From NCBI GenBank assembly GCA_027485465.1, contig JAIXRA010000016.1, positions 6-64,005 on the forward strand: 64,000 nucleotides of DNA, in the 5' to 3' direction. Positions 44,083 through 60,729 of this stretch are shown here, one piece after another. This DNA is from Bacteroidota bacterium (GTDB taxonomy: Bacteria; Bacteroidota; Bacteroidia; UBA7662). A model generated the notes under the pieces. That model saw only the letters and a program-made list of their open reading frames with translations, did no database searches and had not been told where the DNA came from. A program made the position numbers and the translations under genes. Numbering within the stretch: the first letter of the stretch is position 1; each line of letters starts with the position of its first letter.

Positions 44083-44793
44083 TTATTCCAGGTTTTGTTT
44101 GAGTAGAAGGGCGGTGCTCATCGCTGCCACGCAGCGTTCCACACGGGGGGCAAGGTTTCTCGCGAGGCAAACTTCGCCACGGTTGATCAGCGATATTTGC
44201 CCAAGGACCCGACCGTCTTGTTCAAAACGCAATCCAGCATGGGTGGCCCCAAGCCAGCGATGGTTCCCTTCGAGGGTACGTAGGCTGTGAATTTCGATGA
44301 GAGGTTGGCCGGGAATGTCCAAATGACCGCAAAGGCTCTGTCGGCGTGTCGTGTTTTCAGGTCTAAAAAGCACAAACTCGGCGAGGGGCTCTCCGGCACT
44401 GCGAATTTCACCGGTCATTAGATGGCTGTACGACAAAGGCAAAGCGATTCTTCCCTGCCATAGCGGAACGTCGCTTTGTTTGAAACGGGCATGGGTTGTG
44501 ATCGTATCCTGTGTACCATCGCCGGCACTCTGGATGATGCGCATGCGCTGATTGGCTCCACTAAAACGAATGCGAACATTGGCTTGGTAGGAATTGACGG
44601 GGCCTCGGCGTACTTTGAGGGTGGCGTAGGGGCCGTAGGATACTTTGATTTTGAATCGGAATTGTTGACGGCCTTGCACCGGATAACAATCCGATTGACC
44701 TTGGAGACCGGGGTCCAGGGCCAGTCGGATTGGCGTGCATGAAGACGTCAGGAATACCAAGGTGGCGAACAGTAGATAGTAGAATGATTTCAT
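44083..44793 (-). CDS. Lipoprotein of unknown function
   Basis: Signal peptide plus lipobox (LTSSC). It is the last gene of the DUF62-fabG-VWA operon. Confidence 0.6.
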   Translation of the reverse strand: MKSFYYLLFATLVFLTSSCTPIRLALDPGLQGQSDCYPVQGRQQFRFKIKVSYGPYATLKVRRGPVNSYQANVRIRFSGANQRMRIIQSAGDGTQDTITTHARFKQSDVPLWQGRIALPLSYSHLMTGEIRSAGEPLAEFVLFRPENTTRRQSLCGHLDIPGQPLIEIHSLRTLEGNHRWLGATHAGLRFEQDGRVLGQISLINRGEVCLARNLAPRVERCVAAMSTALLLKQNLE

Positions 44794-44806: not shown

Positions 44807-46984
44807 TTAGATTCCTCCAAGGGCTCGTGCAAGGAGCCATTCAGCCCCTAACAACAGCGAAACAAGAACCCAAAACCAAATGGATCGTAACCAAGGGCTT
44901 GAGACCAAGCTTAGGCTGCTTTCGGATCGGATGGTCGGATGTTTTTTTATTTTTTGGCTTAGTTGATTCAGGGCCACGGCGCGTGATTTCGCATCCCATG
45001 CATCCATGCGCAGATAGGTCCCGCCGCTCTGCTTCGCTAGGTTCTGGAGCAAGGCGTGGTCACCGGGTTCGCCAGGGTTTTCGAGTCCAAAGGATTGCAC
45101 AGCCAAAACTCCGTTCTTTACGAGAGGCAGTCCGTTGGCGGAGGTGGTGGCGGTGTATCGGTAGGTGCCGGCTTCTAACCGACCCAAATCAAGGCGGTAC
45201 CCCAAACCGTCCGGGACCATGGCGGCATCCCGGACCAGGCGATCCTTTTGAAAAAGTTGAAGTCGTAGGGTGCTTTGGTTGTCAAATTCACCCTGTGCAT
45301 TGCGCAGGCTGCCCTCAAGCAGGACCGGTTGTGTTTCGTTAAAGAAGGGACGAACAGGTCGAATTTCCAGTCCTTCGGAGGCCTGCCCACCCAACAGCAG
45401 AGAAACGGTGTTAAGAACAAGGCTCTCTAAGGGGGTCGTCGCGACCGAACCATTTATTCCGGACCGATGATCGGAATCCATGGCCAATCGCCAACGCCAC
45501 AAGCCCTCGCCCCAGAGGTAGGCCCGGGTAGGGCGGCTTCGGTATTCCACAACCCACAAGGGTCGTTGGGTGACAACACGATCCTTTTGTTGGTACAAGA
45601 GGGTTGTTCCGACCGGGGATTCGATAGGGCCCAGAGAAGGGGTGGTTAACGGAGGGAGACGGCGAATTCCCTCAGCGAGTTGCACCCCGGGTAGGAAGGC
45701 ATTCCAACGATCATTAAGAACGGGGAGAACCTGAACCATCGGAACCGAGGCGGTGGGTCGCCCCTCCGGCCACCCTTTCCAATCGCTGGCCGCTCCACCC
45801 ATCCACCAAAGCGGTTGGCCCTTTTGTTGAATTTTTTGGAGGAGGTCGGCTTCGCCGGGTTCGGGGTTGGCCGAAGGCCATTGATGCCAGATATAAAGGT
45901 CTGCCGAGGGGTCCGCAACGGCTTTGCGCAAGCCTGCCAGACCATACTCCAATTGCACGACATGATTTTTGGTTTGTTCCAAGACGCTCCGCAGGACCCC
46001 CAAGTCCGGGTGCGGGGCTTTGGCTAGCAAAAGGAGGCGCTTTTTGGTCCGAACGGCTTCCACAAAGGCCAGCTTTTCTGGACTATCCAGGACCTTGCCC
46101 GGTCCAGAGGCGCCGCTGATGCTTCGGCCTCTGAATCGAATCGCATACAGGCCTTCTTCGCCAATTGAAATTTTGAAAGTAAGGTTTTGTTGAAAGGAGC
46201 CTGCTCCCGGTTGCCAAACACGGCGCTCAGCAAGGATAGGTGGGGACGAACCAGCCGAAACCAAGGCCTCGACTTGCAATGTTTGGCCGGTCATGTGATG
46301 GCCTCGTACAGGGATTTCGATTTCCAAATCGCTGTGAGCTTCGACGCGATCGGGAACGGACGGAGAACCGAGGGTCCATGTAGGTAGTTGGCCTTGGTCT
46401 GGCCCACATCCCAACGTCAAGACCGGACTTTGATAGTTTGCAAAAAAGGAACGCGGTTCGACCCCCATGTTAAACAGCCCATCGCTGACGAGGACCCAGG
46501 CAGCGATGCTTTCCAATCCCGCTTGGTCCGAGGTCCAATGGGCCAGGGGTTCGGTGGATGTTAGGCTTTGGTCCAAGTGGACCGAACCGGGTTGGGATGG
46601 GTTCAGTCGGTCGGCCCCTGCTCCAAATCCAACCACATCAATTCGATGGGTTCCTCGAAGTTTTTGGGTGAATTCCAAAGCAAATGAACGCAAACCTTCG
46701 GCGCTGACGCCGGGGCGGTTCATGGACTGACTTTGGTCCAAGGCCAAGACGATCAGTGGCGATTGAACGATTCGTTCTTCCCGAATCCAGGTGGGATCAA
46801 AACAGAGCAGAACCAGCAAAAAAACCGCCAATCCGCGCAAAATCCCAAGGAACAATCGGGCCTTTCTCGAAGGTTGGTTGGGTAAAGGGCGCCCATGTTT
46901 TGCCCAAGCCCAGGCCAAGCCTGCAGCGGCGGACAATGGCAGTACCCATAAAGGGGAACCCCATCCCAGTTCGAGATATCCCAT
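44807..46984 (-). CDS. Large membrane protein with a BatA_N-like N-terminal anchor, VWA domain and C-terminal TM helix
   Basis: N-terminal TM region, a DxSxS MIDAS-like motif (LALDQSQSMN), 725 aa, and a C-terminal hydrophobic helix. Confidence 0.55.
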   Translation of the reverse strand: MGYLELGWGSPLWVLPLSAAAGLAWAWAKHGRPLPNQPSRKARLFLGILRGLAVFLLVLLCFDPTWIREERIVQSPLIVLALDQSQSMNRPGVSAEGLRSFALEFTQKLRGTHRIDVVGFGAGADRLNPSQPGSVHLDQSLTSTEPLAHWTSDQAGLESIAAWVLVSDGLFNMGVEPRSFFANYQSPVLTLGCGPDQGQLPTWTLGSPSVPDRVEAHSDLEIEIPVRGHHMTGQTLQVEALVSAGSSPPILAERRVWQPGAGSFQQNLTFKISIGEEGLYAIRFRGRSISGASGPGKVLDSPEKLAFVEAVRTKKRLLLLAKAPHPDLGVLRSVLEQTKNHVVQLEYGLAGLRKAVADPSADLYIWHQWPSANPEPGEADLLQKIQQKGQPLWWMGGAASDWKGWPEGRPTASVPMVQVLPVLNDRWNAFLPGVQLAEGIRRLPPLTTPSLGPIESPVGTTLLYQQKDRVVTQRPLWVVEYRSRPTRAYLWGEGLWRWRLAMDSDHRSGINGSVATTPLESLVLNTVSLLLGGQASEGLEIRPVRPFFNETQPVLLEGSLRNAQGEFDNQSTLRLQLFQKDRLVRDAAMVPDGLGYRLDLGRLEAGTYRYTATTSANGLPLVKNGVLAVQSFGLENPGEPGDHALLQNLAKQSGGTYLRMDAWDAKSRAVALNQLSQKIKKHPTIRSESSLSLVSSPWLRSIWFWVLVSLLLGAEWLLARALGGI

Positions 46985-47754: not shown

Positions 47755-47786
47755 GGGTCCAAAGATAAACCAGCCAAAGGCTCCTG

Positions 47787-48647
47787 TCAGGAGCGTTCAA
47801 TCATCACTTGGTCCTGAACCCTCAGCCCCAGCAAGGTCTCGGCATGGTTGTTATTCAGAGCAATTTCGAGGTAACCGATGGCGTTGTAAAGCAGCGTAAG
47901 GTGCTGCCCTTCCACGGCATGGTAATGGCCTTGAATCCGGTCGCTGCGGTTTTCGTGTCGTAGGTTGGAGCGAAGCAGTACCTCGAAGGGTCGATCGGCC
48001 ACAAAGGCTTCGACGGTCCCTTGGTCCAAATTGGTATGCAGGTTGCCGTAACTATCCGCATAGAGGACCCGACCATGCAAGACCCCGTCTTGTTCAAAAA
48101 CTTTGTCGAGCCACATTCCGGTGGGATCCGAAACGGGTTCCTGCCATGGCTCAGGGGCTTTCGTTCGGGAAGGGTCTTGGCCCAAGGCATGGATGAGCAT
48201 ACCCAAGGGCCCGTCCAGCCAATCCAACAAAGCAAAGCCTGCATTCGGTCGGGATACCGTTAAAGGGTAACGTTGTACCAGGGGGGATTCGTCGCGGTCC
48301 ACCAAGAGGGGCAGGAGGCCTTGATCCGGCAAGGCAAACCAATGGCCCTGGTAACGGACCACGATAAACGAAGGCCAAGGGTTTTCTTGATTCTTGCTGC
48401 GATAGCCAACATCCAACAAATGCACCGTACCCGGTGGAAAAAAAGGGAAGGCGGTTTTGAGGACATAAACAGCCTCAACCAAGTCATACTTGCTAATATT
48501 GTGTGAAATATCTTCGGTTCGCCAATGCGGAAACCTGCTCAACAATCGCCCTCTCAGCATCGCGACATAAGGATCGCGCAGTCCGTAATCAGTGGTGAGG
48601 GTGAGAAGTGGCATGGGGAGAGCTAAGCAAGCGAAGACCGACCTCAA
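47787..48647 (-). CDS. SAM hydroxide adenosyltransferase family protein (DUF62; fluorinase/chlorinase/SAM hydrolase superfamily)
   Basis: LTLTTDYGLRDPYV N-terminal motif, DISHN, and C-terminal GNLHTN / LLYNAIGYLEIALN blocks align with SalL/FlA/PH0463-type enzymes. The true start may be the internal Met at 48614. Confidence 0.72.
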   Translation of the reverse strand: MRSVFACLALPMPLLTLTTDYGLRDPYVAMLRGRLLSRFPHWRTEDISHNISKYDLVEAVYVLKTAFPFFPPGTVHLLDVGYRSKNQENPWPSFIVVRYQGHWFALPDQGLLPLLVDRDESPLVQRYPLTVSRPNAGFALLDWLDGPLGMLIHALGQDPSRTKAPEPWQEPVSDPTGMWLDKVFEQDGVLHGRVLYADSYGNLHTNLDQGTVEAFVADRPFEVLLRSNLRHENRSDRIQGHYHAVEGQHLTLLYNAIGYLEIALNNNHAETLLGLRVQDQVMIERS

Positions 48648-48720
48648 ATTTATTCCATAGCCACCAAAGCCACGCCTTTTGCCTCACCCTAACGAACCAA
48701 AGGAATTTGATATAGCCGGA

Positions 48721-49668
48721 ATGGATCCCCTGGGATTCTACGGAGCGGGTAATACCCGTCAGGATCGTATGCAAGCAGCTTTTCCGGAGCTCAAGATGAC
48801 ACTTCGAGGGAGTCGCCTGCTCTTGGAGGGGAACGATCAAGTCATGAACCGTTTTCAGGTATTGTGGGAGCGTTTGTTACGGCAATGCAGCTTGGCCAAC
48901 GGTTTTCTGAGTGATGATGCCTTCAACGAAGCCATGGCCGGGCTGGAATCCCGTCAGCGCACCGAAACCACGGGCTTTGAGACCACCTCCAAAACTATCT
49001 TGGTGCACGGCCCCAACGGTCTCATCGTACGGGCGCGCACCCCAAACCAACAGCGCATGGTGGATGCCATGGAACGTTGTGATTTGTTGTTTGCCTTGGG
49101 TCCGGCGGGTTCCGGCAAAACCTACACCGCGGTGGCCCTCGCCGTCCGTTCCCTCAAAAACAAAGAGGTGCGAAAAATCATTCTGACCCGCCCGGCCGTG
49201 GAGGCCGGTGAGAGTTTGGGCTTCCTGCCCGGTGATCTCAAAGAAAAAGTGGATCCCTACCTGCGCCCCCTTTACGATGCCCTCGAAGATATGTTACCAC
49301 CCCAGAGGCTGGCCAAGTACCTGGAGGAGGGCATCATCGAAGTGGCTCCTTTGGCTTTTATGCGGGGTCGGACCTTGGACAAAGCCTTTGTGATTCTGGA
49401 CGAGGCGCAGAACTGCACCCCCACCCAGCTCAAAATGTTTTTGACTCGTATGGGTCCATCTGCTCGATTTATTGTTACGGGCGATTTGACCCAGGTTGAT
49501 TTGCCAACCCGAATGGTCTCAGGCCTGGGCCCCACCCTTCAAGTCCTCAAAGGTCTGCAGGGGATTGCCGTGGTTGAACTGAACGAAACCGATGTGGTCC
49601 GCCACCCCCTTGTCAAAACCATTGTTCAAGCCTACCAAAACCAAAACCAAAACAACGGTCATGCCTAA
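48721..49668 (+). CDS. phoH: PhoH-like ATPase
   Basis: P-loop [14 protein letters not shown] Walker B, and a PhoH N-domain. The start is ambiguous; a TTG at 48679 would also be in frame. Confidence 0.85.
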
Positions 49669-50623
49669 TTCCTTCCCTCAAGCGCCGATTCAATTACCCG
49701 GTATGACCGGCTTCTACCGGGGCAAGGTCCGGGATGTTTATTTCTTGGAAGAAGGTCGATTGGTGATGGTTGCCTCGGATCGTATTTCGGCCTTTGACGT
49801 GGTCCTGCCCGCGGCCATTCCCCGCAAAGGGGAGGTGCTCAACCGTACCGCCGCGTATTTTCTCGAAAAAACCAGGGATTTGGTACCTAACTGGCTGATC
49901 AGCAGCCCGCACCCTCGTGTTTCCTACGGTTACCGCGCCGAACCTGTCGCGGTGGAGATGGTGGTCCGTGGTTACCTGTCCGGGCATGCCTGGCGTTGTT
50001 ACAGGGACGGTGCCCGAACCCTCTGCGGGGTTCCGCTACCGGACGGTTTGCGGGAGTCTGACCCGTTGGGTGCGCCGATCATCACGCCCACCACCAAAGC
50101 ATCCCAAGGCCATGATCAAGACATTTCCCGGGAACAGATTTTGGAACAAGGGCTGGTCAGTGAAGAACATTACCGCACGATGGAGCAATACGCCCTGGCC
50201 TTGTTTGAACGCGGTTCCAAGATGGCTTTGGAGCGTGGTTTGATTTTGGTGGATACCAAATACGAGTTTGGCCTTTTGGACGGAAAAGTCATCTTGATGG
50301 ACGAAGTGCATACCCCCGATTCGTCCCGTTACTTCTACGCAGAGCCCTACCGGGAATTGCAAGAAACCGGCCAACCCCAACAGCAGTTGTCCAAAGAATT
50401 TGTTCGTCAGTGGCTTATTGTCCATGGTTTTCAGGGTTTACCCGGACAACAAATACCGCCCATGACCCCGGAGTGGGTTGAACAGATCAGTGCCCGATAC
50501 CAAGAATTGTACCATCAATTGACCGGCCAAGACCTGGGCCCTTCGGATGCTCTGCAAGTTGGCCTGGAACCCACCGATTGGGTCGATGATTTTTTGGACT
50601 ATCGTCGAACCCTCGGTCTCTAA
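49661..50623 (+). CDS. purC: Phosphoribosylaminoimidazole-succinocarboxamide (SAICAR) synthase
   Basis: [30 protein letters not shown] is diagnostic. The ATG at 49661 overlaps the phoH stop. Confidence 0.88.
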
Positions 50624-51555
50624 CGAACGCGGGTAAAGCTCCCGATATGCCTTTCGATTTTGGAGGGGTTGATGTCGGCAATGGTTACCAAGATCCCGGC
50701 TTCATCCACCCGACCAAAAGCGGCGTTGTGGGCAAAGCCAAAATACCTCATCGTCGAGGACAAGTTCATATAGGCTGGGAAGAGAGGCGGAACCCGGGTT
50801 CCCCAATCGAGGGTTTTTTTGTGGAGCAGGGCCAAGGCTTTTTCGTAATCCAATCCGGCCCAGATTTCCTTGAACGCGTCGGCTTGGGAAAGATCCAGGG
50901 CAAATTCTTGGCGGGGGAGTACCCATCCGTCGGGGTCGGTAAAGAAATGATTCAAGAAACTGTGAAGGCCAACCAGGGCCTCGTGGGGGTAATCCTCAAA
51001 GACCGTGACTTTGCCGTAGAGATAACGGATATCTTCCCTGACCACGGACAAGGCCCCCAATCCATCCCACAGATTGTCCAAGGCAAAGATGCCTTTGCGA
51101 TAGGGGCCTTCGGGTTGGTAATCCGGAGCCACAAAAGCCCGACCCAATTCGAGGGTGTAGGGTAACACATGGTTGCAAAAATCCGGGCTGAATGAAAAAA
51201 TGGAATTCGACGAAAGTCGAAAAACCCCCTGGGCATCCGGTCCCGTTTTGCGGCATTCCACAAAGCGGTAGGCGGCCATGATTTGCCGATTTTCGGGGTC
51301 CCAAACCAGCAATTGTTCGTAGCCATCGGGTTCCATGTCGTAGGCATCCAGATCGCAGGCTTTGCCGGTCCCTCCGCCTTCGGCCCGAAAACAGAGCTCC
51401 CGCAGACGGCCGATTTCCTGAAGGCAGGCCGGTGCATTGTCTGCATTGACCACGTAGAGAAGGTTGTTCCCTTTGTTGGTGGTGCGTAGCAGGCGTTCAG
51501 GCAACAACTCTGCTTCGATCACTGCGGGGTCTTGGGCGTTAATGAGCGTCTGCAT
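50620..51555 (-). CDS. Hemolysin-like GNAT N-acyltransferase (OlsB/GlsB family), candidate lipoamino-acid N-acyltransferase
   Basis: ~310 aa with the OlsB-type acyl-ACP N-acyltransferase fold signature, immediately downstream of a PlsC-like acyltransferase. Confidence 0.55.
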
Positions 51556-52378
51556 GGGGATTTTTTGCGGGCTTGGCTGGGTCTAGGCTGTAAACAAGGG
51601 AACGAACGCGCTCGGTCCAAGCGGCATCTCCTTCGCCATTGGATAGGCTTTCAGGCTGCAGGGGCGGACCAAGGTGCAGGGTAACTCGGGTGCCGCGCAG
51701 GCGGTACATTTCATCCGGCAATAGGATCATTTCTATGTTGGCTTTGATTCCTAATCGCTTACGCCAAGTATAGGTTTTATAAAATCGTTCCGACAAACGT
51801 CCTTCAATGAACAAAGGAATCAAGGGAATCTGGTTTTTGCGCGCAAGGGTAATGGCTGTTTTTTTCCAAGCCAAATCACCGATTGCTCCGTCATGCCGAC
51901 GCGAAACTAAACCGGATGGAAAGATAATGATTCCGTAACCGGAAGCAATTTTGTCCTTTAGGTTGGCGAGGTTTTCCTTCGACTGACGGCCGTGTTTATT
52001 AACAGGAATAAAAAGTCCTTCCAAGGGCTGAACCTGCATGATGATATCGTTGCTAAGGGACGCAAAACGATCCCTCACTTTTCCAATGACATCGTAGATC
52101 GCTAGGCCATCCAATCCTCCAAGGGGATGATTGGCTACCAAAACAAAAGGCCCTTGAACCGGTAGATGCTCCAGACCCTTGACAGCAACGCTCACCCCAA
52201 AATGCCGGAGCACCTCCCTGGCAAAGGGTAAATTCCGTAGGTGACCGTATTCAGCTAGAAAACGGTTGATTTCGTCTTGGTGTATTAAGCGTTCGAGGGC
52301 CTTAAACAGCCAAGACGGTATCCAGCGGGCCAGCCCGGGGTTCTTGGCCTGGAAGGCCGCACGCAGGTTGATTTTCAT
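51539..52378 (-). CDS. Lysophospholipid / 1-acyl-sn-glycerol-3-phosphate acyltransferase family protein (PlsC/OlsA/GlsA-like)
   Basis: HX4D acyltransferase motif (VANHPLGGLDG) and FPSG block. It overlaps the downstream N-acyltransferase by 17 nt. Confidence 0.6.
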   Translation of the reverse strand: MKINLRAAFQAKNPGLARWIPSWLFKALERLIHQDEINRFLAEYGHLRNLPFAREVLRHFGVSVAVKGLEHLPVQGPFVLVANHPLGGLDGLAIYDVIGKVRDRFASLSNDIIMQVQPLEGLFIPVNKHGRQSKENLANLKDKIASGYGIIIFPSGLVSRRHDGAIGDLAWKKTAITLARKNQIPLIPLFIEGRLSERFYKTYTWRKRLGIKANIEMILLPDEMYRLRGTRVTLHLGPPLQPESLSNGEGDAAWTERVRSLVYSLDPAKPAKNPHADAH

Positions 52379-52394
52379 AGCCCCTTAGGCCTCT

Positions 52395-53666
52395 TTAGGT
52401 GGCGAACAATGGGAAGGTGGGGGCAAAGGCTTTGACTTCCTTTCCAACCGCTTCGGCGACCGAGGGATCCTGGTGTTGACGAATAACACGGTCAATCCAA
52501 TCGGCTATTTTTTCCATATCCACTTCATTCATACCCCTCGTGGTCACAGCGGCTGTACCCAAGCGAATACCGCTGGTCACCATCGGGGAAGCGGTATCAA
52601 AGGGGACCATGTTTTTGTTGATGGTGATATGGGCCCTTCCCAAGGCCTGCTCGGCTTGCTTTCCTGTGCATGATTTGTTACGAAGATCAATCAGCATGAG
52701 GTGGTTGTCTGTCCCCCCGGAAATGAGTTGGTAACCTCGATTCACCATCGCTGTTGCCAAGGCCTGGGCGTTCCGACGGACCCGTACGGTGTATTCCTTG
52801 AAGGAGGGAAGCAAGGCCTCACCAAACGCAACGGCTTTGGCCGCTATAATATGTTCCAAAGGTCCTCCCTGGGTTCCTGGGAAAACGCCGGAATCCAAAA
52901 GCGATGATAGCGAACGCAATTCGCCCTTGGGGTTACGTAGATTCCAAGGATTGGGTAGGTCTTCGCCCATCATAATGATGCCGCCCCGTGGACCCCGAAG
53001 GGTTTTGTGGGTGGTGGAGGTTACGATATGGCAATGCGGAAAGGGATGGTTCAACAATCCCGTAGCGATCAAACCGGAAGGATGGGAGATATCTGCCATT
53101 AACAGAGCACCAACTTCATCAGCAATCCGTCGAAGACGTGCATAATCCCAATCCCTGGGATAGGCGGATGCCCCGCAAATGATGAGCTTTGGCTGTACTG
53201 CTTTGGCTTTTTCGGCCACTCGGTCCCAATCGATGCAGCCTGTTTCTTGTTCCACCCCGTAGAAATGGGCCTTGTAAAGTTTGCCGGAGTAATTCACGGG
53301 TGAACCGTGGGTCAAGTGCCCTCCGTGGCTGAGATCAAAGCCCAAAATGGCGTCGCCCGGTTGGAGCACGGCCAGCATAACAGCCGCGTTGGCCTGGGCC
53401 CCCGAATGGGGTTGGACATTGGCCCAGCCCGCCCCAAAAAGTTGGCAAAGCCGGTCGATGGCTATTTGCTCGATTTGGTCAACAATTTCGCAACCACCGT
53501 AGTATCGTTTTCCGGGAAGGCCTTCAGCGTATTTATTGGTTAAAATGGAACCGGCCGCCTCCATGACCTGATCGGAGACATAATTTTCGGAAGCAATCAA
53601 TTCAAGGCCAACGCGTTGGCGTTCTTCTTCGGCTTGGATAAGGTCCGCCAAGAGGGTGTCGTTCAT
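52395..53666 (-). CDS. glyA: Serine hydroxymethyltransferase
   Basis: Full-length SHMT with the PLP lysine motif (..[12 protein letters not shown]..). Confidence 0.95.
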
Positions 53667-53713
53667 AGGGGTCGTTAAAAGGTCTTAGGAAGCGGAATCT
53701 ATAAATGGATTGG

Positions 53714-54763
53714 TTATAACACAGGATCAGATGCTTGGTTTTGTTCCCAGGCCCAAGCGGTCCGCATCATGTCTTCGAGGCTGTATTGAATTTTCCAGCC
53801 CAAGTCACGGGCCGCTCGCTGGTTGTTCGCATATACGGCCACAACGTCCCCGGGTCTCCGTGGGCCAAAGTTCCAATTAAGATGCAGGTGGTTGACGGAT
53901 TCAAAAGCTTGAATCATTTCCAAGACGGTTTGTCCCACGCCGGTTCCCAAATTAAAGACAGACCAGGGTCCAGCAGGTGCTGCGTTTTGGTCCAGGTAAC
54001 GCACGGCATCAACATGTGCTTGTGCTATATCGCAAACGTGTATATAATCCCGAAGACATGTCCCGTCCCGGGTTGGATAGTCGTTGCCAAAGACGGTGAG
54101 CTGCTTCCGCAGTCCCATGGCCGTTTGCGTAATATAGGGCACTAGATTATCGGGAACACCGACGGTGCATTCCCCCAGACGCCCGGAGGGATGAGCCCCT
54201 ACCGGGTTAAAGTAGCGCAAGGCCACCACGCGTTGACCCGCGGTGCGGGCCGGTGTTCCGGAGAGGACCCAGTCACGGAGCAAAGCCTCGCCGACGGCCT
54301 TGGTACGCCCGTAGGGGGATTCGGTTTCGAGCAACGGAGAATCTTCGGTGACTTGGGTTTGTTCCGGATTTCCGTAAACGGTACAACTTGATGAGAAGAC
54401 CATGCCGGGTATTCCGTATTCTTCGCAGGCCTTCATCAAATTCATTTGCCCTACCAGGTTGTTTTGAAAGTAGAACAAAGGATGTTGGGTGGACTCACCC
54501 ACCGCCTTGAAGGCTGCAAAATGTATAACACAAGAAATATCGCCCTCTTGTTCCAAAACTTTGGCCAGCTCTTCCTTGCGGGTCAAGTCGGCCTGGTATT
54601 GATGGTAGTCTTTTTGGGCGATTTCTCGAATTCGATCCGCGATGGCTGGTTTGGAGCGGCTGTAGTTGTCTACGCCTACCACCTGATAACCTGCTTCAAG
54701 CAATGCTACGACCGTATGCGATCCGATATACCCGGTGCTTCCGGTCAACAAAACCTTGGGCAT
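53714..54763 (-). CDS. galE: UDP-glucose 4-epimerase
   Basis: GSTGYIGSH Rossmann motif, YxxxK, 349 aa. Confidence 0.88.
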   Translation of the reverse strand: MPKVLLTGSTGYIGSHTVVALLEAGYQVVGVDNYSRSKPAIADRIREIAQKDYHQYQADLTRKEELAKVLEQEGDISCVIHFAAFKAVGESTQHPLFYFQNNLVGQMNLMKACEEYGIPGMVFSSSCTVYGNPEQTQVTEDSPLLETESPYGRTKAVGEALLRDWVLSGTPARTAGQRVVALRYFNPVGAHPSGRLGECTVGVPDNLVPYITQTAMGLRKQLTVFGNDYPTRDGTCLRDYIHVCDIAQAHVDAVRYLDQNAAPAGPWSVFNLGTGVGQTVLEMIQAFESVNHLHLNWNFGPRRPGDVVAVYANNQRAARDLGWKIQYSLEDMMRTAWAWEQNQASDPVL

Positions 54764-54766
54764 GGT

Positions 54767-55636
54767 CTAGGAGCGCAATAGTTGGAGGAGGTATTGGCCA
54801 TAGCCGGATTTGATCAGGGGTTGGGCCACCGCCCGCAGTCCTTCATCATCGATAAAGCCCATGCGCCATGCGATTTCTTCGATACATCCAATTTTGAGTC
54901 CTTGACGCTCTTCAATGACTTGTACGAATTGTCCGGCTTGCATCAACGATGCAAAGGTGCCCGTATCCAACCAAGCAGTTCCACGGTCTAGGACCTGAAC
55001 CTTGAGACGTCCCTGGGCCAGGTAGTGCCGGTTGATATCCGTGATTTCGTATTCGCCCCGAGCGGATGGTTGCAGGTTCCGGGCAATTTCGACCACGTTT
55101 TCGTCGTAGAAATACAGACCCGGGACGGCGTAATTCGATTTGGGTTTGGCTGGTTTTTCTTCGATGCTGAGGGCCCTGCCTTCGGCATCAAATTCAACAA
55201 CCCCGTAACGCTCTGGATCGTTGACGTGGTATGCAAAAACCACCCCTCCATCGGGATCCGAATGCGAAGCCAATAATCGACTCAGTCCGGATCCGTAAAA
55301 AATATTATCGCCCAATACCAAGGCGGATTTGTTGTTACCAATAAAGTCCGCTCCCAAAACAAAGGCCTGCGCCAAACCATTGGGAACCTCTTGAACACAA
55401 TATTCAAAACGACATCCGATCCGCGACCCGTCCCCCAGCAATCTTTCGAAGGAGGGAAGGTCCTGGGGGGTTGAAATAATCAAAATTTCCCGGATTCCGG
55501 CCATCATCAAGACCGAAATGGGGTAGTACACCATGGGCTTGTCGTAGACCGGCATCAGCTGTTTGCTGGTAGCCAAGGTCAAAGGGTGCAAACGGGTTCC
55601 GGATCCACCGGCTAAAACAATACCTTTCATGATCAA
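54767..55636 (-). CDS. rfbA: Glucose-1-phosphate thymidylyltransferase
   Basis: [18 protein letters not shown].., 289 aa RmlA. Confidence 0.9.
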
Positions 55637-56577
55637 GAAATAGGGTTACGTATTTGGTCAGCTAGGAGATAGAGGACGGCCATCCGCACAGCCACACCGT
55701 TTTCGACCTGCTGCAAAATCACGGAATGCGGTCCATCGGCCACATCGGATTGGAGTTCCACGCCGCGATTGATAGGCCCCGGGTGCATGATGACCAGAGG
55801 ATGGGAAAGCTTCTGGAGACGGGCCTTGTTGATCCCAAAATACAGAGCGTATTCCCGCAGGGAGGGGAGGTATCGAATGGCCTGTCTTTCGTGCTGAATG
55901 CGTAGAACATTGGCGACATCGCACCATTCAAGGGCTTCATCCAGCCGTTGCATGACAGGGAATCCCATATCTTCCAGATGGGGAGGCAACAACGTTGCCG
56001 GTCCGGTGACCCGTACCTCGGCCCCCAATTTGCGCAAACAAAAGAGATTGGACATGGCGACCCGCGAATGCAGAACATCCCCAACCATCAAGACTTTGAC
56101 ACCGCGTAGGCGTCCCATCTTTTGACGAATGGTGAAGGCATCCAAGAGGGCCTGGGTTGGGTGCTCGTGGGCCCCATCGCCGGCATTGATAATGCGGGCA
56201 TCGACCCGGTCTGCCAGGTAACGACAGGTACCGGCATGGGCATGTCGCACCACGAGCATATCGATTTTCATGGCGAGAATATTGCGGACCGTATCGCTCA
56301 GGGTTTCACCTTTGGATACGGAGCTCCCGCTACTCGAAAAATTTACGACATCGGCCGAAAGGCGTTTCTCGGCCAATTCAAAGGAGAGTCGGGTCCGGGT
56401 GGAGTTCTCAAAAAAAAGGTTTGCGATGGTCAAATCCCTTAGAGAGGGAACTTTGCGTACCGGGCGATAAAGGACCTCCAGAAATTGATCCGCGGTTTGC
56501 AAAATCAAATCCAGGTCGTTTTCGCTGAGGTCTTTGATGGCAATCAGGTGTCGGGTGCTGAGGGTTCCTGTTTTCAT
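55633..56577 (-). CDS. pyrB: Aspartate carbamoyltransferase catalytic subunit
   Basis: STRTR and HPxQ motifs; there is no adjacent pyrI. Confidence 0.92.
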
Positions 56578-57143
56578 CCAGCGGAGGGTGTTTGAGAGGC
56601 CTCAAAAGTTTCGATCCACACGAAATCACGCCCCGATTCTTCCATCCATTCCACGTGGATGCGTTGGTTGGGCATGGTATTGACTTTGCGCCCGCAGTAA
56701 TCAGGCCGAATCGGAAATTCCTGGCTGTAAAGTCGATGCAGGAGTACCATCAGCTCCACTTTGGCCGGGCGGCCAAAATCCAGCAAGGCATCCAAACCTG
56801 AACGCAGCGTCCGACCCGTGAAAAGAACATCGTCAATGAGCACAACGGACTTTCCTTCGATGGAAAAATCAATGCGGGTATCCGAGGGAAGAAGGGGGGC
56901 TTCGCGGCGGCGAAAATCATCCCGGTGAAATGTAACATCAAGTAAACCAAGTGGAACGGCTGTTCCCGTTTTGGCTTCGAGGATTCCGTGAATGCGGCGG
57001 GCCAGGAGGGTTCCCCGCGGTTGAAGCCCAATCAATACGCTGTTCTCAAAGCGATGATGGGTTTCGATTAATTCCTGACTGAGTCGATCCAACATCAGGC
57101 TCAACTGTACGGGATCGAGTAGGTTTTGGCGTCCTGGAGTCAT
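56574..57143 (-). CDS. pyrR: Bifunctional pyrimidine operon regulator / uracil phosphoribosyltransferase PyrR
   Basis: PRTase motif VVLIDDVLFTGRT, ~180 aa. It overlaps the pyrB start by 4 nt. Confidence 0.9.
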   Translation of the reverse strand: MTPGRQNLLDPVQLSLMLDRLSQELIETHHRFENSVLIGLQPRGTLLARRIHGILEAKTGTAVPLGLLDVTFHRDDFRRREAPLLPSDTRIDFSIEGKSVVLIDDVLFTGRTLRSGLDALLDFGRPAKVELMVLLHRLYSQEFPIRPDYCGRKVNTMPNQRIHVEWMEESGRDFVWIETFEASQTPSAG

Positions 57144-57144
57144 C

Positions 57145-57564
57145 TTAGAGGGCGGGCCGCTGAGCGTGTGCTAAGATAGTATCAAAATGAGCCTTGCTCA
57201 AGGGAACAACCGACAAGCGGGTATGGGTTAACAGGGGCAATCCACGCAGGGCCGGATCGCTTTTCATTTCCTGCAAGGTAACGGGTCTTTGGAGGGCTTG
57301 GAAGGGGCGGACTTTGACCGCTACCCAGGGCTCATCCGGGCCCGCGGTGGGGTCCGGAAAGGAGGCTGAATCGATCTCCATGATGCCTACCACCGCTTTT
57401 TGGGTCACGCTATGATAAAAAAGCGCTTGATCGCCCTTTTGCATGGCTTTGAGATTCAGTTTGGCCTGGTGATTGCGTACCCCATCCCAGGTTCCTACTT
57501 TTTCCCGGCATAAATCATCCCACGCGTAGGTTTCGGGTTCCGATTTGAGTAACCAATAAGCCAA
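57145..57564 (-). CDS. EVE (PUA-like) domain protein
   Basis: MAYWLLKSEPETYAWDDL.. is a canonical EVE-domain N-terminus, 139 aa. Its stop lies 2 nt before the pyrR start. Confidence 0.75.
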   Translation of the reverse strand: MAYWLLKSEPETYAWDDLCREKVGTWDGVRNHQAKLNLKAMQKGDQALFYHSVTQKAVVGIMEIDSASFPDPTAGPDEPWVAVKVRPFQALQRPVTLQEMKSDPALRGLPLLTHTRLSVVPLSKAHFDTILAHAQRPAL

Positions 57565-57615: not shown

Positions 57616-57852
57616 ATGCCTCGTTCAACCCCCAAGGAATCCGTGAACGCCCCCGATGCGGGCGGCCCAGGTGCCTTCTCGCAACGCATGAACCGCGCAC
57701 GGCATTGGGTTGAACAGATGGAAAGGCAGACCGAGGACCTGGACCAGGCCATGGAGGCGTATCGTCAGGCCATGGAGGACTTGGATTGGTGCAGGGAATA
57801 CCTGCGCAAGGCTCGTTTGCAGGTGGAGGCCTTGGTCAAAAGCCCGGATTAA
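57616..57852 (+). CDS. xseB: Small helical protein, exodeoxyribonuclease VII small subunit (XseB)-like
   Basis: 78 aa. The segment QMERQTEDLDQAMEAYRQAMEDLDWCREYLRKARLQVEAL aligns to the XseB pattern LE.G.LPLEESL.LYEEG..L...C...L..AE..V. No xseA is adjacent. Confidence 0.4.
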   Translation: MPRSTPKESVNAPDAGGPGAFSQRMNRARHWVEQMERQTEDLDQAMEAYRQAMEDLDWCREYLRKARLQVEALVKSPD

Positions 57853-59417
57853 AGGGGCAAGGAGGCCGGCTGAATATCTTGGACAAAGGCCAACCAGGAT
57901 TCGGCGTATTTGCCTTTGAGAACCCGAGGAAATTTATTTTGACCCCCCATTTTGTTAAGGGTATTCATCCATTGCAGGGGTACTTCTTCGGAGAGGATGA
58001 CAATTTCCATGATACGCAAGGCATGCCGTCTTTCCACATCGTAGTCGTCGTTCAAACCCCGAAGAATGGCATCTAATTTGAGCAGCAGGTCCACTTGCCT
58101 TTCCCGCGCTTGGGCGACTTGTTCCTTGGCTACCGACAAATACCAACGATGCCCGTAGCCACCGTTCGTTGACAACCCCATGACGGCGCATTCTCCCAAT
58201 GTAAGGTCTTCATCATGAGCTAGTTTGAGACATCCTTCGTTGATGTTTTCCATCGAAAGATGCTCTCCACATAGGCTCAAAAAATGTTTAATCCGGCCGG
58301 TGATTTTAATTTCGATATTTTGCAAACACTCAAAGCGAATCGTATCGCCAATCAAATATCGCCAGGCCCCGGAGCAGGTGGTAATCAAGAGAGCGTAATC
58401 CTTGTGGGCCTCCACTCGATCAAGGGGAATCGCTTGGGCCTGCGGTCGGACCTGTCCGTCCTCGTCAAAATGATCTTCGTCAAAGGGAATGAATTCGTAA
58501 TAAATTCCGTTGTTAAGACTGAGGCGCATGCCTTTTCGTTCCGGAGCAATCCGGGTATCGTAAGCCAGGAATCCTTCGGAGGCCAGATACGTCTCGATGT
58601 AGGATAAGGGCCGGGCACAAATCCGCTCAAAAGCAGGGAGGTAGGGATCCATTGCCACACCACCGTATGCAAAAACCTGCAAATTGGGCCAGATATCATG
58701 GATGGTACGGACCCCGTGATGTTGAATAATTCGTTCAAACAAGAGTTGCACCCAGGATGGAATCCCGGAAACCACCCAGATATCCCAATTTTTGGCCTGC
58801 AAAGCAATTTCTTCAATTTTTTGGTCCCAATCTCGAATTCTTGAAATGCGATCCCCGGGTTTAAAAAAGGGGGTGAACCACAAAGGAATTTTGGAAGTGT
58901 TGATGCCGCTGAGGTCACCGAAATAATAATGACCCGAGTGTTGGAGGTTGGCCGAACCTCCCAACATCAAAATTCCTTTTTCAAAGAGTTCGCTTGGGAA
59001 ATTAAAGCGGGACAAAATCAGCATCTGCTTGATCGACGTGCGACGCATGGATTTGATCATGTCCCCCGATACCGGAATGTATTTGCTGGCGGCCTCCGAG
59101 GTCCCGCTGCTCAGGGCGAAATACTTGATTTTGCCAGGCCAAGTGATGTTGGACTTGCCTTCGTGATACCGCTTCCACCAACGTTCGTTGATGGCGTTGT
59201 AATCATGAATGGGCACGCGTCGGCTAAACTCATCCAGCATGTGGCCGGAATCCAATATGGAAGAGAAACCGTAATAACGACCGATATCCGTCTGCCGGGC
59301 CTTGCGAAGCAAGCGGGCCAGGACCAACTTTTGTTGGAGTCTGGGGCTTAATATATTGAATTGAAGGGCCTTCCCTGCTTGAAGGGTGCGTTTGAAGAGG
59401 GTCCCAAGTAGTGCCAT
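57849..59417 (-). CDS. GH3 (auxin-responsive promoter) family acyl-acid amido synthetase-like adenylating enzyme
   Basis: Adenylation motif ALSSGTSEAASKYIP and ~520-aa length are typical of bacterial GH3 proteins. Confidence 0.65.
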   Translation of the reverse strand: MALLGTLFKRTLQAGKALQFNILSPRLQQKLVLARLLRKARQTDIGRYYGFSSILDSGHMLDEFSRRVPIHDYNAINERWWKRYHEGKSNITWPGKIKYFALSSGTSEAASKYIPVSGDMIKSMRRTSIKQMLILSRFNFPSELFEKGILMLGGSANLQHSGHYYFGDLSGINTSKIPLWFTPFFKPGDRISRIRDWDQKIEEIALQAKNWDIWVVSGIPSWVQLLFERIIQHHGVRTIHDIWPNLQVFAYGGVAMDPYLPAFERICARPLSYIETYLASEGFLAYDTRIAPERKGMRLSLNNGIYYEFIPFDEDHFDEDGQVRPQAQAIPLDRVEAHKDYALLITTCSGAWRYLIGDTIRFECLQNIEIKITGRIKHFLSLCGEHLSMENINEGCLKLAHDEDLTLGECAVMGLSTNGGYGHRWYLSVAKEQVAQARERQVDLLLKLDAILRGLNDDYDVERRHALRIMEIVILSEEVPLQWMNTLNKMGGQNKFPRVLKGKYAESWLAFVQDIQPASLPL

Positions 59418-60074: not shown

Positions 60075-60729
60075 GACTCAAAATTACTTGTTTTTTTGCC
60101 AGGACGTTCCTTTTGAACTTCGAAGCCCCCGACCTGGAGAGTCGGTACAGGGGGTTGAGGAGGTCTGGAATAGGATCCAAAGCATCTTGTACAGCCAAGA
60201 AAAAACCAGCCAATCTCCGGGTTTTTGGGCTGCCCGCGATGTGGTTACAGAGGATCAAGACCGAATGTGGGCCGACTTGATGCAGCGATGTTGGTTGTTG
60301 GAGGCCGGTGGGGGGCTGATTTTTAGTGAAGATCAAATGTTATGGATTCTTCGACACGGTCGATGGGATCTGCCCAAGGGCAAAGCCGAGCCCGGCGAAA
60401 CCATGCTGGAAACGGCTATCAGGGAATGTGTTGAAGAGTGCGGTTTGGTTGATTTAACCCCGTTGGATTCCTATAAAAAATTGGAAACCAATCATTTGTA
60501 TCTATACAAAGGCCAAGTCGCTTGGAAGCGGAGCCATTGGTTCACCATGACCTGTCCGAAGGACCGCAATCAGCGGCTCCAACCCCAAATCGAAGAAGGC
60601 ATCACCGAGGTCCGTTGGATGTCACCCGAGGAGGTGCAATCGGTTGCCTTGCCAGGGACCTACCCATCGGTACGTAGCCTGCTGCAAGGGGCCGGCCCCG
60701 AATACCTCAAAGGTTTGGGTCGGATTTGA
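60073..60729 (+). CDS. NUDIX hydrolase
   Basis: Nudix box GKAEPGETMLETAIRECVEECGL. The ATG at 60073 is chosen as start but a shorter form is possible. The ORF-track 5' extension overlaps pyrE. Confidence 0.65.
   Translation: MTQNYLFFCQDVPFELRSPRPGESVQGVEEVWNRIQSILYSQEKTSQSPGFWAARDVVTEDQDRMWADLMQRCWLLEAGGGLIFSEDQMLWILRHGRWDLPKGKAEPGETMLETAIRECVEECGLVDLTPLDSYKKLETNHLYLYKGQVAWKRSHWFTMTCPKDRNQRLQPQIEEGITEVRWMSPEEVQSVALPGTYPSVRSLLQGAGPEYLKGLGRI

Follow-up and report, generated by a model that had tools for sequence, protein, structure and literature searches.

RESULTS

An acyltransferase gene pair downstream of glyA

We analyzed a 64,000-nucleotide (nt) stretch of contig JAIXRA010000016.1 from a Bacteroidota bacterium (assembly GCA_027485465.1), hereafter called the window, in which two acyltransferase genes stand directly after glyA, the gene for serine hydroxymethyltransferase (SHMT). 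Curated equivalog hidden Markov models (HMMs) and tree placement strongly support the identification of the two genes as a GlsA/GlsB-type pair, that is, as an O-acyltransferase and an N-acyltransferase of glycine-type lipid synthesis. An earlier reading of the letters alone (the original prediction) had placed three minus-strand open reading frames (ORFs) here, with a 17-nt overlap between glsA and glsB and a 16-nt gap between glyA and glsA, and the ORF list matches it exactly (Table 1). The 16-nt spacer from the glyA TAA to the glsA ATG is AGAGGCCTAAGGGGCT.

Table 1. Features of the glyA-glsA-glsB locus, in window coordinates
Feature	Position	Strand	Description or basis
glsB	50620..51555	minus	311 amino acids (aa), GNAT-like, Acetyltransf_5; putative glycine N(alpha)-acyltransferase, from sequence
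glsA	51539..52378	minus	279 aa, Acyltransf_2 branch of the LPLAT/PlsC superfamily; putative lyso-glycine-lipid O-acyltransferase, from sequence
glyA	52395..53666	minus	423 aa, canonical serine hydroxymethyltransferase; membership in the lipid system not established
glyA-glsA spacer	52379..52394	minus	16 nt; no room for a terminator, no promoter-like site
GlsA catalytic box N83-H-P-L-G-G-L-D-G91	52106..52132	minus	Regular expression on the translation and tblastn-aligned motifs of 72 homologues
GlsA F153-P-S-G156 (LPLAT FP[E/S]G substrate-coordination motif)	51911..51922	minus	Read from the translation; position via H162
Eight-gene string EVE-pyrR-pyrB-rfbA-galE-glyA-glsA-glsB	50620..57564	minus	ORF coordinates, families, and gap table

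The N-acyltransferase falls within GlsB

The two ACYLTRANSFERASES were scored against curated NCBIfam equivalog models for exactly this system and against Pfam. The 311-aa protein reached 353.6 bits on the GlsB model NF053696 (cut-off, 300) in an end-to-end alignment, with residues 5 to 305 on profile positions 3 to 302 of 303, and its Pfam match was PF13444 (Acetyltransf_5). On the OlsF model NF052615 it scored 184.8 bits against a cut-off of 620, and on the OlsB models NF052554 and NF052555 it scored 22.0 and 18.4 bits against cut-offs of 320 to 350, which places it outside both families. An OlsF would moreover be one fused polypeptide of approximately 570 aa with a score of 620 bits or more; the window has two separate ORFs, with 178 to 185 bits for each half. 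In an alignment of 30 diverse homologues (43 to 85% identity), all of which match the GlsB model, the window protein keeps 68 of 68 invariant columns, and the family-invariant ELGRxF is among the motifs that it carries.

To place the protein among its homologues, we ran phmmer exhaustively against 1.84 billion representatives of 50% clusters, which returned 128 proteins at E ≤ 1e-30. The representative of the window protein's own cluster (P0005) is 67% identical to it; for the one after that, identity is 41%. Twenty representatives were labeled with the curated models. On the GlsB model, 12 single-domain representatives scored 304 to 487 bits and one (P0192, 252 bits) fell under the cut-off. 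Among the fused representatives of approximately 570 to 600 aa, four lay above the OlsF cut-off (639 to 790 bits) and P0216 stood at 580; these five OlsF-type proteins reached just 137 to 222 bits on the GlsB model. In a neighbor-joining tree of the labeled representatives, the bipartition of OlsF from the rest was recovered in all 100 bootstraps, and the clade of the window protein was monophyletic (100/100) and nested inside the GlsB group, not basal to it. The phylogeny that had been proposed as a check on the original prediction thus groups the protein with GlsB and apart from OlsF, with OlsB models at or below 22 bits, rather than with unrelated GNATs.

The same labeling brought up two further fused proteins, P0126 (614 aa) and P0132 (597 aa). 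Both were considered as OlsF and rejected, since their two halves clear the cut-offs of GlsA and GlsB and the OlsF scores (398 and 323 bits) lie under the 620-bit cut-off. They are natural single-polypeptide GlsA-GlsB fusions, an OlsF-like architecture inside the glycine lipid clade.

The O-acyltransferase carries an H-x5-D catalytic box

The 279-aa protein scored 280.7 bits on the GlsA model NF053697 (cut-off, 260), 196.1 bits on PF19576 (Acyltransf_2; cut-off, 27), 42.8 bits on PF01553 (Acyltransferase), and 178.5 bits on the OlsF model. On TIGR00530, the model of canonical PlsC/LPAAT, it reached 29 bits (cut-off, 102.95), so its kinship with those enzymes is one of superfamily membership only (PF01553). 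Together with the scores of GlsB and those of GlyA (538.8 bits on Pfam SHMT and 602.4 bits on NCBIfam NF000586), these results bear out the family calls of the original prediction, namely, Acetyltransf_5/GlsB, Acyltransf_2/GlsA, and SHMT.

The HX4D motif that had been assigned to this protein was wrong. A regular-expression search of the translation found no H-x4-D anywhere in the 279 aa, which again separates it from canonical PlsC/LPAAT; the catalytic residues stand in the sequence NHPLGGLDG, as H84-x5-D90. Of 72 GlsA homologues sampled from related loci, 71 share the H-x5-D spacing and one has H-x5-E. An FPSG motif lies at residues 153 to 156. An active H-x5-D variant has been documented in another aminolipid O-acyltransferase, SalA, which has the FP[E/S]G motif as well (PMC8319176). 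The corrected motif is a useful discriminating signature of GlsA-type enzymes.

Linkage to glyA within and outside the clade

The clade of the window was sampled through six species-level freshwater metagenome-assembled genomes (MAGs) found in a genome-collection scan (GlsB identity, 76 to 97%), all from uncultured Bacteroidota, and through three further sequence types obtained by exact-protein look-ups (GlsB identity, 63 to 67%). The distant set comprised 83 loci with GlsB identities of 41 to 50%, of which 80 came from a metagenome scan; the other three, found on long contigs, include a Paramuribaculum and a Cyclobacteriaceae MAG.

The original prediction, which took adjacency to glyA as a hint of coupled glycine supply, was to be refuted by a linkage that was not conserved in related genomes, and on this point the outcome was mixed. 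Among close relatives the linkage held: glyA was directly upstream of glsA in all 12 testable clade loci (GlsB identity, 63 to 97%). It failed at the next phylogenetic step. An SHMT gene adjoined glsA in none of the 48 testable distant loci and lay within approximately 5 kb in none of the 83, and glyA was likewise absent at the three nearest outgroups (L098, L099, and L100; GlsB identity, 50 to 51%). The pair itself is more widely kept, as glsA stands directly upstream of glsB in 58 of the 83 distant loci. A search of the 80 metagenome loci for a recurrent third gene beside glsAB, such as one for a serine-adding enzyme, yielded only housekeeping neighbors, with a divergent mraZ-rsmH-ftsL-ftsI group in approximately 18 and an EngB-like GTPase gene in 19.

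Within the clade, conservation was not confined to the glyA-glsA junction. The whole block of approximately 12 kb was collinear in loci L001 to L013, unrelated and opposite-strand genes included, in the order EVE-pyrR-pyrB-rfbA-galE-glyA-glsA-glsB, convergent purC-phoH, and then S-adenosylmethionine hydrolase-fabG-725-aa ORF. No clade rearrangement was found that broke the neighboring junctions and spared glyA-glsA, and galE precedes glyA wherever sequence exists. Because no rearrangement isolates the junction and the entire block is collinear, its conservation is indistinguishable from ordinary inherited synteny. A glyA-glsA-glsB cluster conserved as such would recur across separate lineages or survive rearrangement, and neither was observed. 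Adjacency to glyA as a sign of coupled glycine supply is therefore unsupported beyond the lineage of the window.

Three side observations concern these loci. In the outgroups L098 (6001-7535), L100 (515-2052), and L099 (1400-2338), glsB occurs without an adjacent glsA, and in L098 and L100 an EngB-like GTPase gene follows glsB directly. The 725-aa ORF (44807-46984, minus strand) and a 236-aa ORF (44083-44793, minus strand) have no Pfam match; the former is syntenic throughout the clade and diverges fast, with approximately 40% identity where fabG has 77% and phoH 76%. Compared with its closest relatives, the window is also a recombination mosaic. Both flanks are approximately 95 to 100% identical in nucleotide sequence to L001, whereas the segment from approximately 53240 to 51440 (the 3' half of glyA, glsA, and the start of glsB) is 65 to 93% identical to L001 but 88 to 98% identical to L006, which elsewhere is just 65 to 90% identical to the window. 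The most divergent gene is glsA, at 78 to 80% amino acid identity to L001 to L003 with neighbors at 94 to 99%, and a second, patchier divergent zone lies in galE (54440-53840).

Gene spacing and transcription signals

As a background for the 16-nt gap, we built a gene set for the window by greedy choice of the longest ORFs (61 genes, approximately 87% coding). Gaps of at most 20 nt separate 23 of its 46 same-strand neighbor pairs, and the median gap is 22.5 nt; the glyA-glsA gap is within this background and ordinary for a compact genome. The three genes form the tail of the eight-gene string (Table 1), whose internal gaps range from -17 to +47 nt and whose functions are mixed, comprising an EVE-domain protein, pyrimidine synthesis (pyrR and pyrB), sugar-nucleotide synthesis (rfbA and galE), SHMT, and the lipid genes. 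Within it, pyrB and rfbA overlap by 4 nt despite having no functional relation. Because tight spacing is common in the window and joins unrelated genes such as these two, it provides no evidence of metabolic coupling. The string is probably a transcription unit of mixed function.

Scans for sigma-70-type promoters and for the Bacteroidota -7 box TAnnTTTG gave no promoter signal between glyA and glsA, and no terminator signal was found there. Across the window, none of the three scans exceeded the expectation (for promoter-like sites, 3 versus 6.4 from shuffling; for terminator-like sites, 18 versus 13.8 from shuffling; for TAnnTTTG, 23 matches versus 29), and the minus strand holds no TAnnTTTG site between 60079 and 48997. 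Several copies of the box do lie just upstream of gene starts (for example, 60079-60086, 48645-48652, and 47760-47767 on the minus strand). An Rfam scan at gathering thresholds and a tRNA scan of the whole 64 kb found nothing; accordingly, neither glyA nor glsA is preceded by an Rfam-recognized riboswitch or leader. Read-through from glyA into glsAB, and probably also from further upstream, is likely on geometric grounds.

The borders of the string show further features. At its 3' end, glsB and the convergent purC overlap tail to tail in their stop codons (CTAA at 50620-50623, read as TAA on the plus strand and TAG on the minus strand), which leaves no intergenic space for the terminator of either gene; tail-to-tail overlaps of 4 to 31 nt also occur in the relatives L007, L010, and L013. 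The mechanically called purC ORF (343 aa) overlaps phoH by 77 nt (49592-49668). Relatives align only from approximately residue 23, and their called genes are 317 to 320 aa long; the true purC start is probably an internal ATG at approximately 49661. Just upstream of the string, across its only sizeable gap (284 nt), lies an ORF for a 522-aa GH3-family protein (57849-59417, minus strand) with N-terminal, middle, and C-terminal domains present. GH3 proteins, known above all from plants, resemble acyl-acid amido synthetases.

DISCUSSION

Taken together, these results suggest that the locus is probably an ordinary Bacteroidota glsA-glsB operon for the synthesis of a glycine-type lipid and that its position after glyA is the inherited synteny of one lineage. 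The pair is an added member of a known, widely distributed glycine lipid system. Formation of glycine lipid and flavolipin in Bacteroides thetaiotaomicron requires glsB (BT_3459), which has glsA immediately upstream; coexpression of the pair in Escherichia coli yields diacyl glycine lipid (10.1101/371807). The glsA-then-glsB order of the window is this characterized Bacteroides arrangement (10.1101/371807; reviewed in PMC12971839). By analogy, the window GlsB would attach a 3-hydroxy fatty acid to glycine at its alpha-amino group, forming a lyso-glycine lipid of the commendamide type, and GlsA, through its H84/D90 dyad, would add a second fatty acid in ester linkage to the 3-hydroxyl, yielding a phosphorus-free diacyl glycine lipid. 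This product would serve as a precursor and may be extended to serine-glycine lipid (flavolipin). Standing at the 3' end of a packed eight-gene housekeeping string, glsAB are probably read through from upstream.

Several observations weigh against this interpretation. The clade is just 41 to 50% identical to all other GlsB and has no cultured member, and the margin of GlsA above its cut-off is modest (280.7 versus 260 bits). The promoter scans turned up no internal site between glyA and glsA, so glyA, glsA, and glsB may well be coexpressed. The junction survives down to 63% GlsB identity and approximately 78% SHMT identity. At such a divergence nonoperonic gene order has often been lost, and selection for the arrangement is possible.

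These last points bear on an alternative in which glyA-glsA-glsB is a functional module of the lineage, with a cotranscribed SHMT matching the supply of glycine and serine to aminolipid synthesis, for example, when phospholipids give way to phosphorus-free lipids in oligotrophic fresh water. The biochemical logic is plain, since SHMT produces the head-group amino acid; the 16-nt spacer lacks a terminator or promoter signal, the adjacency is kept in every testable clade locus, and the divergent recombination tract spans glyA and glsA together. Nevertheless, all other junctions of the block are equally conserved, including those of unrelated or oppositely oriented genes, no rearrangement in the clade singles out glyA-glsA, and the adjacency vanishes in the distant loci and the nearest outgroups. 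Moreover, GlyA resembles an ordinary housekeeping SHMT, its gene stands equally beside nucleotide and sugar-nucleotide genes, and the literature searched gave no paper linking SHMT to glycine lipid genes. We therefore regard such a module as unlikely. Slightly less likely still is the specific proposal that, in this abundant uncultured freshwater clade, an SHMT was recruited into one transcription unit with glsA-glsB so that production of the head group (glycine or serine) and assembly of the phosphorus-free aminolipid are coregulated; if true, this would be the first amino acid supply gene wired to an aminolipid synthase operon. There is no evidence that the post-glyA position was selected for glycine supply.

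Returning to the ordinary glsA-glsB operon, the head group is its most uncertain element, given that the clade forms a long branch and that its GlsB score is among the lower ones of the family (353.6 bits within 304 to 487). On this long uncharacterized branch, the pair might make an acyloxyacyl aminolipid with another head group, such as ornithine, lysine, or serine. Precedents for shifts in specificity exist among OlsB/OlsF-type enzymes: the product of GluB, an OlsB homologue, is glutamine lipid, and with some aminolipid synthases lysine lipid is formed besides ornithine lipid (PMC12971839). The distance of the clade from any other GlsB (41 to 50% identity) would leave room for such a change. 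On the other hand, the protein scores above the cut-off of the curated GlsB equivalog model and stands clearly apart from OlsF (184.8 versus 620 bits) and OlsB (at most 22 bits), and it is nested within GlsB, not basal, with all 68 invariant columns kept. A different head group is accordingly very unlikely. That the genes are unrelated to lipids is hardly credible: the public records do name the genes of this lineage "GNAT family N-acetyltransferase," "hypothetical protein," or "putative hemolysin," but these are legacy names that the curated GlsB and GlsA models supersede, the "hemolysin" label going back to the lytic activity of lyso-glycine lipid (10.1101/371807; PMC11631085).

For the glycine-type operon that we favor, the gain is one of annotation: a specific function, glycine-type aminolipid synthesis as predicted from sequence, can be put to genes of a widespread freshwater lineage that are poorly named in the records. 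Beyond annotation the significance is limited, and the glyA adjacency would matter only if coregulation were demonstrated.

Among known systems, the closest is GlsB/GlsA (also ChoA/ChoB) of B. thetaiotaomicron (BT_3459/BT_3458) and Bacteroides vulgatus, which synthesizes glycine lipid and flavolipin. Shared with it are the two-gene layout, in which the gene for the O-acyltransferase directly precedes that for the N-acyltransferase, the PF19576 and PF13444 domains, scores of both proteins above the NCBIfam cut-offs, and tree placement inside GlsB. In contrast, the window proteins are approximately 45% identical to their Bacteroidales homologues, and the host belongs to an uncultured freshwater lineage rather than to the gut. 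The window genes also overlap by 17 nt and close a long run of housekeeping genes, right behind glyA; none of the 83 other GlsB loci has this context.

The bifunctional ornithine lipid synthase OlsF (Spro_2569 of Serratia proteamaculans and Fjoh_0833 of Flavobacterium johnsoniae) shares the two-step logic of N-acylation followed by O-acylation, and the window GlsA and GlsB match its N-terminal (178.5 bits) and C-terminal (184.8 bits) domains, respectively. Unlike in OlsF, the two activities of the window are encoded by separate genes, the scores are far under 620 bits, the OlsF clade is split off in 100 of 100 bootstraps, and the head group is presumably glycine, not ornithine. OlsB and OlsA of Sinorhizobium meliloti, which make ornithine lipid, likewise act as an N-acyltransferase and then an O-acyltransferase, often from adjacent genes. 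However, the similarity of the window protein to OlsB is marginal (at most 22 bits versus cut-offs of 320 to 350), and the window GlsA differs from OlsA, with its canonical HX4D, in having H-x5-D and in its Pfam family, which is Acyltransf_2. The sulfur-aminolipid (SAL) enzyme of marine roseobacters, SalA, is an LPLAT-type O-acyltransferase with an H-x5-D box and FP[E/S]G (PMC8319176). Its likeness to the window GlsA was noted at the motif level only; its substrate, lyso-SAL, and its phylum differ.

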